The translations under genes and the position numbers were made by a program. The notes beneath the pieces are model-generated. The model was not told where the DNA came from. It was given only the letters and a program-made list of their open reading frames with translations, and made no database searches. Positions 33,294 to 44,441 of a stretch of 64,000 nt of DNA are shown here, piece after piece. How positions within the stretch are numbered: position 1 is the first letter of the stretch; every line of letters starts with the position of its first letter. Origin of the DNA: Candidatus Babeliales bacterium (GTDB lineage Bacteria > Babelota > Babeliae > Babelales > JANWKD01); contig CAVRJM010000001.1 of assembly GCA_963722075.1 (NCBI GenBank), positions 149,898 to 213,897 of the forward strand, in the 5' to 3' direction.

Positions 33294-34214
33294 ATGAAAA
33301 AATTATGGCCAATTCTCTACATTTTTTCTCTCTGCTTTTATATAAATGTAACAAGTGCAGTTGTTATGGATGTATTAAAGGATAAAGAGTTATTTGATAT
33401 TAATAGCGTAGTGGTAACGGTTGATGGTCCCGAACGCAAGCGCTATATTTGTAAATCAGAATTAATGCGTGTTGGTATTGATGGTAGAAAACCATCAGTG
33501 GAAGATTTAATTACTGAAGAACTTGCCTTGCAAGATGCCATTAAACATAAGATACCGGTTGAGGATTTTGCTGATCGTTACATCGCTTCAATAAAAAAAG
33601 CGCATAACGTTAATGATCGTGAAGTTGATCGTATCTTTGAAGCCGCTGGACTTACTCCTGATGAAGGGCGTGCTAAGTTGCAAGCAATGGGTGCGCATAA
33701 TACCATGATTGATATGAAGGTAAAAGCACGGATTTTTGTTCCCCAACAAGAAATCGAAGAGTATGCTAAAAATAATCCCCTCTATAAAGAACCAAAATAT
33801 CAATTAGAAGTAGCGATTGTTCCATTTTTTTCCTTTGATCGAAAAAAACAAGAAGAACAATTCCAGTTTCTGATTGAGCAAGCCAAAGAAGGGCAATTAG
33901 ATGTGATATGGGGTGCTCCCTTTTGGTTGAAAAAAAGCGATATTGCTGATGATAAACAATTTATACTCACCATGCAGGTGGGCGAGGTTTCGTTACCGCA
34001 ACCTGGCAATGCTGGTTTTGAATTTTGCCGTTTAAAAAATAAAAAACCTGAAAAGCTTATTCCTTTAGAAAAAAGATTTAGAACGATTCTCGATGAATTG
34101 CGTGAACCAAAATTTAAGGGAATGTTTGATAGCTATATCAATGATCTTTTAACCAATGCAGCCATTATTTACCCAGAAGCTGATTGTTCTGGCGGAGACA
34201 CCGGCCGGGCTTGA
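33294..34214 (+). CDS. secreted SurA-N-like chaperone-type protein (tentative)
   Basis: Signal peptide MKKLWPILYIFSLCFYINVTSA. The mature part resembles SurA N-/C-terminal chaperone helices (..EELALQDAIKHKIPVEDFADRYIASIKK..). No clear PPIase motif. Confidence 0.45.
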   Translation: MKKLWPILYIFSLCFYINVTSAVVMDVLKDKELFDINSVVVTVDGPERKRYICKSELMRVGIDGRKPSVEDLITEELALQDAIKHKIPVEDFADRYIASIKKAHNVNDREVDRIFEAAGLTPDEGRAKLQAMGAHNTMIDMKVKARIFVPQQEIEEYAKNNPLYKEPKYQLEVAIVPFFSFDRKKQEEQFQFLIEQAKEGQLDVIWGAPFWLKKSDIADDKQFILTMQVGEVSLPQPGNAGFEFCRLKNKKPEKLIPLEKRFRTILDELREPKFKGMFDSYINDLLTNAAIIYPEADCSGGDTGRA

Positions 34215-35542
34215 GGACCATATAATACATAATGCTGCGCATGTGGGAAACCTTGTGCTGCCAATTTATTCATAAGAGCAATGCCAATAGTTTGTTTGGC
34301 TGGTTTATGTTCGATATATAAACGTGCAATAAGATAAGAAGCCGTTTGATGATGATTTCTATGTGCTTGCTTGAGTAGCTTATATCCGACTTTTTGGTTG
34401 AATGCTCCTGGTTGATTAAGATGATGGATCGCTAATTCATATTGCGCATCAGAATCTTTTTGGCCAGCTGCTATCTCTAAGTAAAAAAGCCCTAAGGAAA
34501 TATCTTGATCAAGATACGTGCCCTTTAATAGATGGGTTCCGTATTCACGGTAAGCAGGCATATGCTGTTGTGCCACTGCTTCTTGAAAAAATTTTTTTGC
34601 TTTTTCTTTATTTTGGGGAAGGTATCTATTGGTACAATAATAACGTCCCATAAGGCATTGAGCAGGAGCAAATCCTATGCATGCTGCATTATGTATTAAT
34701 TTGATACCTTTTTTTATATCAAATGGGACTCCGTTACCCTGCAAATATAAAACACCCAGACTATTTTGAGCATATAAACAGCCTAATTGGGTGGCCTTTT
34801 CATAATAGAACGTTGCGTGATTGTAATTTTGCTTTACGAAGTTATTTTCAGTTTCATATAATAAGCCCAAATAAAAAGCTGCGGTAGCAAAATCTGATTT
34901 CGCTGCTTGTTTCATAAGCTCGAGTGCTTGTTTTATGTTTTTTATTTGACCAAAGCCATATAAGTAACAGAGCCCTAATGAAAATGTGGCAGGAATTGAA
35001 CCCATCATTTGAGCTTTATTATAACAGCTTTGGGCTTTGAATTCATCATTTTTATATTCATACAGTTTACCAAGCAAATAAAGTGCCCGATGATCCGATT
35101 TTGCTTTTTCTAAATAAGCAATACCTAGTTGTTCATTAATAGATTCTATATCCGTTATTTTTTTAATTAAATAATAAATACCCCAAAATAAATAATCTGA
35201 AGGGCTAACGGGTGATCTTTGCTCAAAAAATGAAAAATCTATTTGATCCCACCGCATATTTTTAAAGGGATCGCTTGGGGTTTGGTAGGCATCAGCATCA
35301 TCAAGAAATTTGTTATAGGTTGCGTAGTAAATAAGCGTTTGGAGGGCCTGTGGATTGCTGTTAGCATGTGCAATTAATAGTGGAATGACGGGAAAAATAT
35401 CTTTCAAATTAATGGAAGGGGTATGGTAATGGGAAGCAATAAGATGTGTTGGATCCTCATGAGTTAGTTTCCCAATGAGTGGCGGTTTCATAGAATATAA
35501 TGCAGTATTTATAAATACTATAAATATTAATAATAGAAACAT
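34169..35542 (-). CDS. Sel1-like (SLR/TPR) repeat protein, secreted
   Basis: Multiple Sel1 units (..A.F.LGL.Y..G.G...N...A...F.KAA..G...A.. pattern, e.g. ATFSLGLCYLYGFGQIKNIKQALELMKQAA, AQNSLGVLYLQGNGVPFDIKKGIKLIHNAA). N-terminus MFLLLIFIVFINTALYS|MKPP. Confidence 0.85.
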   Translation of the reverse strand: MFLLLIFIVFINTALYSMKPPLIGKLTHEDPTHLIASHYHTPSINLKDIFPVIPLLIAHANSNPQALQTLIYYATYNKFLDDADAYQTPSDPFKNMRWDQIDFSFFEQRSPVSPSDYLFWGIYYLIKKITDIESINEQLGIAYLEKAKSDHRALYLLGKLYEYKNDEFKAQSCYNKAQMMGSIPATFSLGLCYLYGFGQIKNIKQALELMKQAAKSDFATAAFYLGLLYETENNFVKQNYNHATFYYEKATQLGCLYAQNSLGVLYLQGNGVPFDIKKGIKLIHNAACIGFAPAQCLMGRYYCTNRYLPQNKEKAKKFFQEAVAQQHMPAYREYGTHLLKGTYLDQDISLGLFYLEIAAGQKDSDAQYELAIHHLNQPGAFNQKVGYKLLKQAHRNHHQTASYLIARLYIEHKPAKQTIGIALMNKLAAQGFPHAQHYVLYGPQARPVSPPEQSASG

Positions 35543-35692: not shown

Positions 35693-36661
35693 ATGAAACA
35701 TGGATTGTTGTTATTACTTTTTTTACCCGGCATTGTTAATGGAATGTTAGAATTAGAAAACGGGCTTAAGCAGCTAAAATCAAAATTATCAACGCTTGAT
35801 AGGCAAATGCATGCATTTTATACCGCGCCGATAGCTACAAAACCTGCAAAACCACCGATGCCTATTATCTCAGAACCAATAATTGCTAAAAAACCGGAAC
35901 CCCAAAGTATCAGTGCTCCTCTAAAACGGCTTACTTCTATACAATATAATGATTTAAAAAAGGTGATAGAAGAAGAATCTAAAGAAGATGGTTGTTGGAA
36001 TTATAATTTAAATACCTATCCAGTTATCCAGGAACTTGAAAAAGAATTGGGGCTTTCTCAATTTATTTTTTCATGCCTTGGTAAATATATTATGATTTCC
36101 AGCCGTACCATGATGCGTGGGAACCGTGAATTATTCTCTATTGATGAGGTGAGGACTGAATTAAATAGTTACCGTTTTGATAAGGTAACCAAAGAGTATA
36201 AAATTCATCTTATGCCTAAATCGGGTGAAGATTTACTCCTTATCATTGAGCGTTTGCTCAAAGAAATTCAATCGAATGATCAACTGCAAAATTCGCTTGT
36301 TGAAATTAAATTTAAAACGCCTGATTATCAAGAATTAAAGGAGCGATTAAAAAAACTGAAAAGCGGTAGTAAAAAAGTTAAGCCTATTATTGTTATATAT
36401 CCAGGTAGCAGTAAAAAAGATGCGCAAACGGTGTTAAATAGTGTGTATAAATTATTTGGCACTATGGAAGGGCTTGATATGGCACCGCGATTTAATGAAA
36501 AAATTACCTCGTTAATATATTATGCACAAAGCCATGGCGATATAAAAAGAGGTAATGAGTTTGATGAATTTTTTACTGAAGATAAGAAATTCTTCAAACC
36601 GGATGTAGAAGGCAAAGGATACGATATTGATTATCGCTTACAAAATCCCGCTGCACATTAA
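35693..36661 (+). CDS. secreted protein with OspF/SpvC-like phosphothreonine-lyase motif pattern (tentative)
   Basis: Signal peptide MKHGLLLLLFLPGIVNG|ML and a Pro-rich linker. It then has, in the same order as the SpvC catalytic residues: YKIHLMP (K104-x-H106), EIKFKTPD (K134-x-K136), KERLK (R148) and IIVIYPG (Y158). Confidence 0.5.
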   Translation: MKHGLLLLLFLPGIVNGMLELENGLKQLKSKLSTLDRQMHAFYTAPIATKPAKPPMPIISEPIIAKKPEPQSISAPLKRLTSIQYNDLKKVIEEESKEDGCWNYNLNTYPVIQELEKELGLSQFIFSCLGKYIMISSRTMMRGNRELFSIDEVRTELNSYRFDKVTKEYKIHLMPKSGEDLLLIIERLLKEIQSNDQLQNSLVEIKFKTPDYQELKERLKKLKSGSKKVKPIIVIYPGSSKKDAQTVLNSVYKLFGTMEGLDMAPRFNEKITSLIYYAQSHGDIKRGNEFDEFFTEDKKFFKPDVEGKGYDIDYRLQNPAAH

Positions 36662-37912
36662 TTATTCGTATTCTTCTTCTTGATTAATTTGAGCATACAA
36701 TTCACATGCCTTTTTAGTTAAATTATCTTTATTATCTTTATACTCATTTTTAGATGAAAAATAATGAGATATAATAGCTTCAAATCCAACATCAATATTA
36801 ATGGGCGCTCTTTTTTCGCGTACTTCGATGGTTCTGACGGGGGTAACACTCACTAGATGCAATGCATGGTTACATGCTTGAATAACTTTTTGTAAATCAA
36901 CCGTATCTTTAGTTTGATCAGGAACATAATAGATAATTTTCACAATGGCATCAGCAATATCATACTGCTGAATTGCTTCAATAATTTGATAGGTCTGATC
37001 CAAATTCGGTTTTAAGCGAATCTCTATTTGCAAAAACGGGCGTATGGGTGTCTTAATAAATTCATGTGTAGTTACGTTTTTTTCTTTAATAGTAACGGAA
37101 CAAAACCCTTTTTCTTCTTTGCGTTCGCCAAAATCAATGCGTTCAATAGATCCGGAATATATAATAGCCGGATATCCCTCAGGATTAAGATTTTGATAAC
37201 GATGTAAATGTCCTAAGGCAACATAATCAAATGGTTCAATAGCTAATTGAGATGGTAGTAAAATAGGATCAGTGCCATAAATAGCGCGTTTTTCTGAGCC
37301 CGAAAAAATCCCTGAACTTACCGTTAGATGACCTGCCAGCACGGCCGGGATGGTTGGATCAAGTTCTTGTGCCAGATTGTTAATAATAGTGCTCACTGAT
37401 TGTGAAATATAATCAGTAAGCACGGTGTTCGATTTATATGCATGAGTGTTATTCATTGCAATATTAGTTCTACTGGGCCACGGGATACCAACAATCTGAA
37501 CAGGACCGCTTTTGGTTGGTAATGTTATCCAGGATGGTTTTGCAAATACATGAAACCCTTGCACGGGGAGCTCACCAAAGATATCAAGGGTGGTGGCTTT
37601 ACCAAAACTTAACGGGTTATCATGATTACCAACCACAATAATAATGGGGATTCCTGCTTTATATAAACGTAAAAAGCAGCGCATTAAGAGCCGCTGCTGC
37701 GTGGGGCTTGGATTGATTGTTTTATATGCATCACCCGAAAACAGAAAAAAATCAAAAGCATGATCAATGGTGTAATCGATGCAAAAATTAAGCGCCTTTT
37801 CAAAATCTAATAAGCGTGTATGGATTCCTGTTTTGGCATCGATCTTACCATAATTTTCCATACCAAAATGGATATCGGCAGTGTGAATAAATCGTATCCC
37901 ATTACGATCCAT
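36662..37912 (-). CDS. sbcD: Mre11/SbcD-family DNA repair exonuclease
   Basis: Calcineurin-like phosphoesterase motifs are present (IHTADIHFG, SGDAYK, VVGNHD, LAGHL, LGHLH). No sbcC is adjacent. Confidence 0.88.
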   Translation of the reverse strand: MDRNGIRFIHTADIHFGMENYGKIDAKTGIHTRLLDFEKALNFCIDYTIDHAFDFFLFSGDAYKTINPSPTQQRLLMRCFLRLYKAGIPIIIVVGNHDNPLSFGKATTLDIFGELPVQGFHVFAKPSWITLPTKSGPVQIVGIPWPSRTNIAMNNTHAYKSNTVLTDYISQSVSTIINNLAQELDPTIPAVLAGHLTVSSGIFSGSEKRAIYGTDPILLPSQLAIEPFDYVALGHLHRYQNLNPEGYPAIIYSGSIERIDFGERKEEKGFCSVTIKEKNVTTHEFIKTPIRPFLQIEIRLKPNLDQTYQIIEAIQQYDIADAIVKIIYYVPDQTKDTVDLQKVIQACNHALHLVSVTPVRTIEVREKRAPINIDVGFEAIISHYFSSKNEYKDNKDNLTKKACELYAQINQEEEYE

Positions 37913-44077: not shown

Positions 44078-44441
44078 ATGCAGATCGATCTTTTATTAGA
44101 TTTAATAAAGATAGGATGTGTGTTAATGAAGATGGGACACGTAGCTCCCGAATTACGTTTTGCCAGTGACGAGTTATTGCTCGTAAAATATTACTATAAT
44201 AGATCAAATAAGGATGAGCAAACCAAGCTAACAAGATTGCCTACCAACCATGCAGGGGTTAGATATAACACCCCGATTTAATACGAAGATTACCTCCTTA
44301 ATTTATTATGCACAAAGTAGTAGTGATCTGAAAATAAAGAGTGATTTAGAAAAATATTTTACTGAGGATAAAATTTTTTTTAGATCGGATGTTGAAGGTA
44401 AAAAAAATGTTGATTATAGTTTGAAAGATCCCCGTACGTAA
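44078..44441 (+). pseudogene. decayed, 5'-truncated paralog of 35693..36661
   Basis: 44250-44441 (MQGLDITPRFNTKITSLIYYAQSSSDLK..YFTEDKIFFRSDVEGK) aligns with the C-terminus of the 322-aa protein (MEGLDMAPRFNEKITSLIYYAQSHGDIK..FFTEDKKFFKPDVEGK). The upstream piece (IDLLLDLIK..ELRFASDE..LLLVKYYYNRSNKDEQ) aligns in other frames. There is no signal peptide, no K-x-H motif, and KFK has become RFA. Confidence 0.75.

Follow-up and report, generated by a model that had tools for sequence, protein, structure and literature searches.

In this work, we describe a gene of Candidatus Babeliales whose product appears to resemble, in its predicted fold and in a small set of invariant residues, the enzymes that act on phosphoserine and phosphothreonine by beta-elimination. 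The gene occupies positions 35693..36661 of the forward strand of a 64,000-nucleotide stretch of contig CAVRJM010000001.1, hereafter the window. On balance, we are inclined to think that it encodes a Sec-exported modular protein with a highly divergent 240-amino-acid domain of the phospho-Ser/Thr lyase superfamily, which would work by the mechanism proposed below. This superfamily of phospho-Ser/Thr beta-eliminases includes the OspF/SpvC/HopAI1 proteins, the lyase domains of LanKC and LanL, and the LanY/HopA1 proteins. The family of the window protein is probably a new Sec-exported branch of it, membership being suggested by several weak lines of evidence that converge. A bolder claim, that we are dealing with a fourth and previously unrecognised branch, Sec-exported, with more than 1000 clusters in Dependentiae and a fold shared with orphan proteins of giant viruses, is a serious possibility that we advance tentatively.

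The open reading frame (ORF), which the original prediction had placed exactly, starts with ATG and encodes 322 amino acids followed by a stop codon. It represents a complete coding sequence (CDS) of a candidate secreted phospho-lyase-like protein, preceded by a TATAAT box and by the Shine-Dalgarno-like AAGAGGAA located 5 nt 5' of the ATG, and two further public contigs encode an identical protein. The signal peptide and Pro-rich linker of the original prediction were also recognised. All features of the protein lie on the plus strand: a signal-peptide-like N-terminus MKHGLLLLLFLPGIVNG (35693..35743), read from the sequence and presumably cleaved after VNG; an amphipathic helix, possibly a coiled coil, at residues 18-44 (35744..35824); and a Pro-rich flexible linker APIATKPAKPPMPIISEPIIAKKPEPQSISAPLKRL at residues 45-80 (35825..35932), whose sequence and length differ between homologues. 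In the AlphaFold2 model, a helix spans residues 2-44 with a predicted local distance difference test (pLDDT) score of 82-91, which falls to 50-70 in the linker. The remainder, residues ~85-322 (35945..36658), is a conserved alpha/beta domain, as supported by AlphaFold2, Foldseek and the family profile, and constitutes the candidate lyase domain. The full-length model reached a pLDDT of 84, and a model of residues 80-322, based on a 42-sequence alignment, a pLDDT of 92.9 and a predicted template modelling score (pTM) of 0.91.

Every motif quoted in the original prediction is present in the protein, namely YKIHLMP (residues 169-175), VEIKFKTPD (203-211), KERLKK (216-221), PIIVIYPG (231-238) and ITSLIYYAQSHGDIKRG (271-287). 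The residues of interest are K170 and H172 of the K-x-H in YKIHLMP, K206 (with K208) in VEIKFKT, and Y236 in PIIVIY, and the models place them on three beta-strands at residues 169-173, 202-208 and 233-237. The K-x-H strand YKIHLMP (36197..36217) would correspond to SpvC K104/H106 and ThurKC K65/H67, as judged from its near-invariance and from motif comparison. The strand LVEIKFK (36296..36316) carries K206, the proposed base (SpvC K136, ThurKC K94), and PIIVIYP (36383..36403) carries Y236, the putative equivalent of SpvC Y158 and ThurKC Y122. Further downstream, the conserved signature PRFNEKITSLIYYAQSHGDIK (36485..36547) contains R266, N268, Q279 and K285, which are candidate phosphate-binding residues.

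The family to which the protein belongs is large and unannotated, with neither a Pfam nor an NCBIfam model. Relatives numbered 19 in a first homology search and 39 with a profile. An exhaustive profile search recovered 1047 representatives of clusters at 50% identity, and for 410 of these E was <= 1e-30. The named genomes with family members are metagenome-assembled genomes (MAGs) of Candidatus Dependentiae/Babeliales. It is this taxonomy of the homologues, and not a marker gene of the window (GC content ~35%, on a contig of 1.42 Mb), that makes a protist-associated bacterium, as the original prediction had it, a reasonable and the most likely source of the DNA.

Conservation was scored over 163 domain copies of the family. 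K170 and H172 are conserved in ~100% of them, K206 in 98% and Y236 in 99%, and even members outside the strict motif filter keep the K-x-H as YKIHLMS, YKIHLQP or YKFHLMP. The K-x-H, the Lys and the Tyr are the invariant core of this large family, and the motif residues rank among its most conserved positions. Other conserved polar residues are K241 (85%), Q245 (93%), R266 (88%), N268 (98%), Q279 (98%) and K285 (99%). From SpvC and ThurKC we derived a general pattern (K-x-H, 24-40 residues, hydrophobic-K, 16-40 residues, hhhY), and this occurred in only 24 of 200,000 composition-preserving shuffles of the window protein, with spacing windows chosen when the spacing of the protein itself was known. 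Judged from the letters of the motifs, the resemblance exceeds chance.

Comparison of the domain model with the Protein Data Bank (PDB) by Foldseek returned 8sam_B (ThurKC) and 9dk1_B, 9dk2_B and 9dk3_B (LxmKY complex) as the top four matches, with probabilities of 0.93-0.98, E-values of 0.02-0.065 and template modelling (TM) scores of 0.34-0.37; the top neighbours of the full-length model were identical. ThurKC is a class III lanthipeptide synthetase whose lyase domain, residues 29-213, has SpvC, OspF and HopA1 as its nearest structural relatives according to its authors (PMC10604976), and in the LxmKY dehydratase complex the HopA1-like lyase is LxmY (PMC12141560). Chain B of the three LxmKY entries is presumably LxmY. 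ThurKC and LxmKY also have a kinase fold in common, and the PDB is rich in structures of protein kinases and aminoglycoside phosphotransferases. Since no other kinase or aminoglycoside phosphotransferase appeared in the top 50 Foldseek PDB matches, the kinase fold is rejected as the cause of these matches, and the element common to them would have to be the lyase fold. The predicted models lean towards a shared alpha/beta lyase fold.

Far better than any PDB entry were the matches of the domain model (query 35930-36658) to giant-virus proteins with models in BFVD, with TMq values of up to 0.60: Terrestrivirus A0A3G4ZM50 (E 5.6e-10), Tupanvirus A0A6N1NK10 (E 4.5e-9) and Fadolivirus A0A7D3V7D7 (E 3.4e-3). 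The predicted fold is thus common to Dependentiae and giant viruses that infect amoebae. The Terrestrivirus and Tupanvirus proteins, the strongest structural matches, belong to viruses that likewise parasitise this type of host (amoebae), but they share only 15-16% identity with the window protein, are larger (512-750 amino acids) and remain uncharacterised. No sequence-level relatives were found in the viral contigs of IMG/VR.

A direct link to the lyase domain of LanKC came from a Pfam scan of 135 family members at a permissive threshold, in which two matched PF25816, 'RamC, N-terminal domain' (RamC_N), with a best E-value of 0.0025. Residues 52-202 of ThurKC could be rebuilt from primers used for mutagenesis (supplement of PMC10604976), and the fragment agrees with all published residue numbers (K65, H67, K94, K108, R112, K117, Y148, D152, R163 and R191). 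This fragment matches PF25816 at E 1.9e-48 (164.9 bits, profile positions 26-176), so that PF25816 is the LanKC lyase domain and a profile position equals the ThurKC residue minus 28. The register on the profile is then ~37 for the Lys of the K-x-H (K65), ~39 for the His (H67), 66 for the conserved Lys (K94, the essential base) and 93-94 for the Tyr (Y122). Residues 270-365 of one member, P0056, align to profile positions 23-117 (single-protein E 0.13, 12.2 bits), with the Lys of the K-x-H at ~37, and slice 47-144 of P0069 aligns to positions 22-117. A third member, P0031, gives a weak match to positions 64-117, which places its conserved Lys at 66 without gaps.

The strands themselves are much alike. 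That of the K-x-H reads QGWKIHVTS in ThurKC, KEYKIHLMP in the window protein and GDKFHISV in SpvC; that of the base Lys reads IEFKHL, VEIKFK (family consensus xFK[IV]) and DKWKV; and that of the Tyr reads KFITIYP, PIIVIYP and AQFTLYI. In a single pre-specified comparison, the hidden Markov model (HMM) of the family scored the ThurKC fragment at p = 0.015, anchored on KIH and IYP. If the PF25816 match is counted over three pre-specified families (PF03536, PF17914 and PF25816), its chance probability is 0.0025/24736 x 135 x 3, or ~4e-5, whereas over all 24,736 families and 135 queries 0.34 such matches are expected and the result is unremarkable. At the level of sequence we regard this link as supportive, not decisive. 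The window protein itself did not match PF25816 in its Pfam search, PF17914 was absent both from the families listed for the window protein and from the 25 listed in the 135-member scan, and ThurKC was not matched when PDB sequences were searched by phmmer with P0056 and P0031.

The PF25816 matches were located by means of concatenated pseudo-proteins. Concatenation inflates recurrent weak matches (Cupin_1, DUF1307, ELP3_N and Nif11), and the E-values of these were not used as evidence. Such matches recur on short stretches in many members, for example around residues 233-250 (IVIYPxxGKxxAQxxL), and were treated as noise. In formal terms, the ELP3_N match (four members, best E 1.9e-4) surpasses that to RamC_N.

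Among characterised enzymes, LanKC/LanL (ThurKC, PDB 8SAM) is the best PDB fold neighbour (probability 0.93-0.99), alone among known families in giving a direct, if weak, profile match, and the one with nearly identical local motifs (WKIHV against YKIHL, EFK against xFK, ITIYP against IVIYP). The spacings are similar, with 27 residues in ThurKC and 34 in the window protein from His to Lys, and 28 and 30 from Lys to Tyr. Unlike the N-terminal domain of a kinase-cyclase synthetase, the window protein stands alone, bears a signal and lacks a context of peptides that are made by the ribosome and modified after translation (RiPPs), and the half with D152, R163 and R191 is not recognisably conserved in it. 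LanY/HopA1 proteins (PF17914; LxmY in 9DK1-3 and CaoY) are the second-best fold neighbours (probability 0.96-0.98). They keep the base Lys and the Tyr and lack most of the canonical Arg pocket (PMC9486802), as the window family appears to do. In contrast to the invariant K-x-H of that family, LanY enzymes have an Arg in place of K104 and no H106, and they form a heterodimer with a LanK kinase, whereas no kinase is found near the window gene.

Based on these comparisons, a mechanism may be proposed. The signal peptide would direct Sec export and be cleaved, and the helix with the Pro-rich linker would serve to tether the catalytic domain or to present it. By analogy with SpvC and ThurKC, K206, tuned by Y236, would take the C-alpha proton of the phosphoserine or phosphothreonine, K170 would stabilise the enolate and contact the phosphate, and H172 would protonate the leaving phosphate. 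K241, R266 and K285 could form an alternative phosphate site that replaces the Arg pocket. LanY enzymes are proven lyases without most of that pocket (PMC9486802). The product would be dehydroalanine or dehydrobutyrine, that is, an irreversible dephosphorylation in which the phosphorylation site is lost. The most likely substrates would be phosphorylated proteins of the protist host, such as activated kinases, because the family is expanded in obligately intracellular Dependentiae, usually bears a signal, sometimes carries ankyrin repeats and is never partnered with a kinase. After Sec export, the protein may reach the host by release or in outer-membrane vesicles. Lyase activity as such, and mitogen-activated protein kinases as its substrate, are purely conjectural.

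Signal-like N-termini are common in the family. A hydrophobic 10-mer occurs within the first 30 residues of 121 of the 153 full-length members (79%), against 1 of 91 OspF-family proteins. In Dependentiae, Sec signals are the norm among putative effectors, and in the cultivated Chromulinavorax 44% of the CDS have signal peptides, the presumed route of effectors being Sec, possibly with outer-membrane vesicles (PMC6561590). Some long members carry N-terminal ankyrin repeats (P0049 and P0078) and one an HD phosphohydrolase domain (P0094), and neither 10 long members nor the 135 scanned proteins contained a kinase or cyclase domain. The N-terminal extensions of the long members (600-940 amino acids) mostly have no Pfam match. 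Neither a conserved operon partner nor a kinase, cyclase or precursor-like neighbour was present at six loci, the window and five others, and at the latter the neighbours are mutually unrelated (an IS200 transposase, TruA, GNAT, DUF2339, a WD40 protein, YebC and a tRNA synthetase). The surroundings of the window gene showed no synteny with Babeliales loci. Tandem paralogues are common at loci L007 (4907-6462) and L010 (4215-6456), and L004 (5446-6495) has a second tblastn segment. Taken together, the data on signals, fusions, context and paralogues fit a fast-evolving family of secreted effectors and argue against a role in RiPP biosynthesis.

Several results weigh against a phospho-lyase, and those on the OspF/SpvC/HopAI1 proteins (PF03536) also bear directly on the original prediction, which had assigned the window protein to them. 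The SpvC motifs and numbering given there are correct, since the SpvC sequence of Salmonella plasmid pSLT has GDKFHISV (K104/H106), VDKWKVTD (K134/K136), QQARV (R148), AQFTLYIKP (Y158) and KYLSYRNELRSGR (R213/R220). Our comparison set consisted of 93 PF03536 members built from SpvC, and SpvC as a control matched the PF03536 profile at E 5.3e-142. HHalign scored the family against the OspF profile at 17.3 (P = 0.098), compared with 17.0 for the reversed and 15.3 +/- 1.5 (maximum 19.0) for 40 block-shuffled controls, and found nothing when the family was aligned to the single SpvC sequence. The OspF HMM reached a best E of 0.019 in 172 family proteins, against 0.027 in the reversed ones and 0.034 in the best of 30 shuffled databases, and the Pfam search proposed with the original prediction gave no PF03536 match for the window protein at E <= 10. 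As the HHalign and HMM scores do not surpass the reversed and shuffled controls, membership in PF03536 is rejected; no sequence statistic supports it.

The original prediction is supported in part, and the register of the four residues in it is reproduced. In the top local alignment by HHalign, of family positions 92-169 with SpvC 104-169, and in the two strongest OspF-HMM matches, K170 is paired with K104, H172 with H106, K206 with K136 and Y236 with Y158, and the PF25816 model gives the same correspondence, but the alignments are not statistically significant, and the HHalign and OspF-HMM register repeats the one first proposed and is not independent of it. The OspF profile, as a positive control, also failed to detect the ThurKC lyase domain among PDB sequences at E <= 10. 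Between the families of LanY and OspF, both proven lyases, there is likewise no significant sequence similarity (PMC9486802). In this superfamily a missing sequence significance is thus to be expected and has little weight. Like OspF/SpvC/HopAI1/VirA, the window protein has the K-x-H, the Lys and the Tyr in this order on beta-strands that follow one another with helices between them and, presumably, the biology of a bacterial protein delivered into a eukaryotic host. It differs from them in the lack of significant sequence similarity, in a Sec-type signal instead of type III delivery, and in belonging to a family of the phylum Dependentiae, with protist hosts.

Also to be counted against the lyase are the lack of a clear Arg pocket and the modest size of the matches. 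Over the 163 domains the stretch from K206 to Y236, in which an R148 equivalent would be expected, contains no basic residue that is conserved; KERLKK, taken for the R148 counterpart in the original prediction, sits in a variable and often deleted loop and is not conserved across the family. In ITSLIYYAQSHGDIKRG, proposed there as the R213/R220 region, counterparts of these Arg residues either lack conservation or cannot be aligned. None of the profile alignments to known lyases extends over the C-terminal half, in which ThurKC has D152, R163 and R191 and SpvC D201, R213 and R220, and a gapless alignment by eye (KIANVFY-R163-YGG with KITSLIY-Y277-AQG) places the essential Arg (R163/R213) on the variable Y277. 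The PF25816 matches (12-20 bits) are well under the 27-bit gathering score and confined to one subfamily, and spurious-looking Pfam matches, such as that to ELP3_N (E 1.9e-4, four members), equal them in size. Neither the window protein nor the family profiles A1 and A3 had other than chance matches (Rpb4, FANCI and FtsN) to Pfam, NCBIfam or PDB sequences. The Foldseek PDB matches are marginal, none reaching E <= 0.001 and all with a TM score below 0.5, and eIF4E-like folds are found among them with probabilities of up to 0.77. Foldseek did return phospho-Ser/Thr lyases as the best PDB neighbours, but the structures of SpvC, OspF and HopA1 themselves are absent from the top 50.

These observations may be accommodated in other ways. 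The window protein might have the same lyase-like fold and Lys/His/Lys/Tyr pocket and yet carry out another reaction on an anionic substrate, such as hydrolysis of a phospho-ester, elimination on a phospho- or sulfo-compound other than a protein, or simply binding of a phospho-ligand, with host lipids, nucleotides or glycans as targets. Such a different chemistry would explain why SpvC R148, R213 and R220 and ThurKC R163 and R191 lack conserved counterparts, while another set (K241, Q245, R266, N268, Q279 and K285) is conserved in their place, and why the LanKC profile is matched in its N-terminal half only; the moderate structural similarity (TM ~0.35) and the far better giant-virus matches also suggest a distinct functional clade. 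The residues that were kept are, however, exactly those of beta-elimination in SpvC and ThurKC, namely the base Lys, the Tyr and the acid His, and the LanY precedent of proven lyases with most of the Arg pocket missing (PMC9486802) holds here as well. We consider this alternative unlikely. The resemblance could also be coincidental, the domain being an unrelated alpha/beta fold, for instance that of a Dependentiae protein of the periplasm or envelope, or of an eIF4E-like ligand binder. Sequence comparisons that stay within decoy scores, the range of Foldseek E-values that the lyases share with eIF4E and other folds, and weak Pfam matches of equal size to unrelated families are all in keeping with this possibility, and a signal peptide by itself proves export to the periplasm only. 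Coincidence would leave unexplained why Foldseek 3Di, the PF25816 HMM and the OspF HMM with HHalign converge on one superfamily and one register of residues, why Foldseek probabilities of 0.93-0.98 are confined to lyases, and why the targeted PF25816 probability (~4e-5) and the frequency of the ordered motif among shuffles (~1e-4) are so low. It therefore strikes us as improbable.

A further alternative accepts the chemistry and changes the substrate: the protein would be a LanY-like lyase that stands alone and dehydrates a ribosomal peptide, of the lanthipeptide or thioamitide type, for the bacterium's own use. The nearest structural and profile neighbours (ThurKC, LxmY and PF25816) are indeed RiPP enzymes. 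At the window and the five other loci, though, the adjoining genes code for housekeeping functions, a transposase and WD40 or Sel1 proteins, with no kinase, cyclase or precursor-like gene, no member of the family is fused to a kinase, and the signal peptide would separate the protein from a cytoplasmic RiPP machinery. Nor do RiPP enzymes typically come in paralogue clusters by the hundred within genomes of 1.2-1.4 Mb, and this explanation seems very remote.

To our knowledge, phosphothreonine lyases, which carry out a rare and irreversible protein modification, have so far been known in two settings only, among the type III effectors of a few proteobacteria and as domains in RiPP biosynthesis. 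Our literature search found no paper that joins them with Dependentiae. If the window protein is a phospho-Ser/Thr lyase, this chemistry extends to a poorly understood phylum of protist parasites, a large family of secreted orphan proteins of Dependentiae gains its first testable function, and giant-virus orphan proteins of the same fold are flagged as well. The 'eliminylation' of host phosphoproteins would then be an ancient and widespread weapon of bacterial and viral parasites against protists, beyond a few proteobacterial pathogens. The window protein is a testable candidate for a new branch of saboteurs of host signalling. Because the catalytic Lys/His/Lys/Tyr set is kept and the set of basic residues differs, the family could show how far the Arg pocket is dispensable, as LanY hints. 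It could also supply new enzymes to install dehydro-amino acids in proteins.

As for its surroundings, the window gene is a lone plus-strand gene between a Sel1-repeat protein and an opposite-strand unit of an SbcD-like nuclease and GlmU. The divergent upstream neighbour (34169-35542, minus strand) encodes the Sel1-repeat protein, which has 457 amino acids and a hydrophobic N-terminus; proteins with repeats of this type often take part in the host interaction of intracellular bacteria. On the other side, not a single nucleotide separates the stop codon of the window gene (36659-36661) from the end of the SbcD-like ORF that converges on it (36662-37912, minus strand), which leaves no space for an intergenic terminator between the two genes. 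In the Dependentiae MAG UBA6230, a family gene is adjoined by a gene for a 569-amino-acid WD40-repeat protein, a eukaryote-like beta-propeller (L008, 3626-5332, minus strand).

Tandem gene pairs and two-domain proteins occur in the family (P0009, P0047, P0048, P0049, P0051 and P0057), and at L004 an IS200-like transposase lies immediately upstream of the family gene, which suggests rapid duplication and turnover. The window itself contains a second trace of the family at 44250..44441 (plus strand), where the ORF list has a 63-amino-acid product (MQGLDITPRFNTKITSLIYYAQSSSDLK...) matched by the family HMM at E 1.8e-25 (HMM positions 164-227). It corresponds to the C-terminal quarter of the domain only, without the K-x-H, K206 and Y236. 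Just 228 bp separate it from the rsmA/ksgA-like gene upstream, and we therefore regard it as the remnant of a truncated paralogue.

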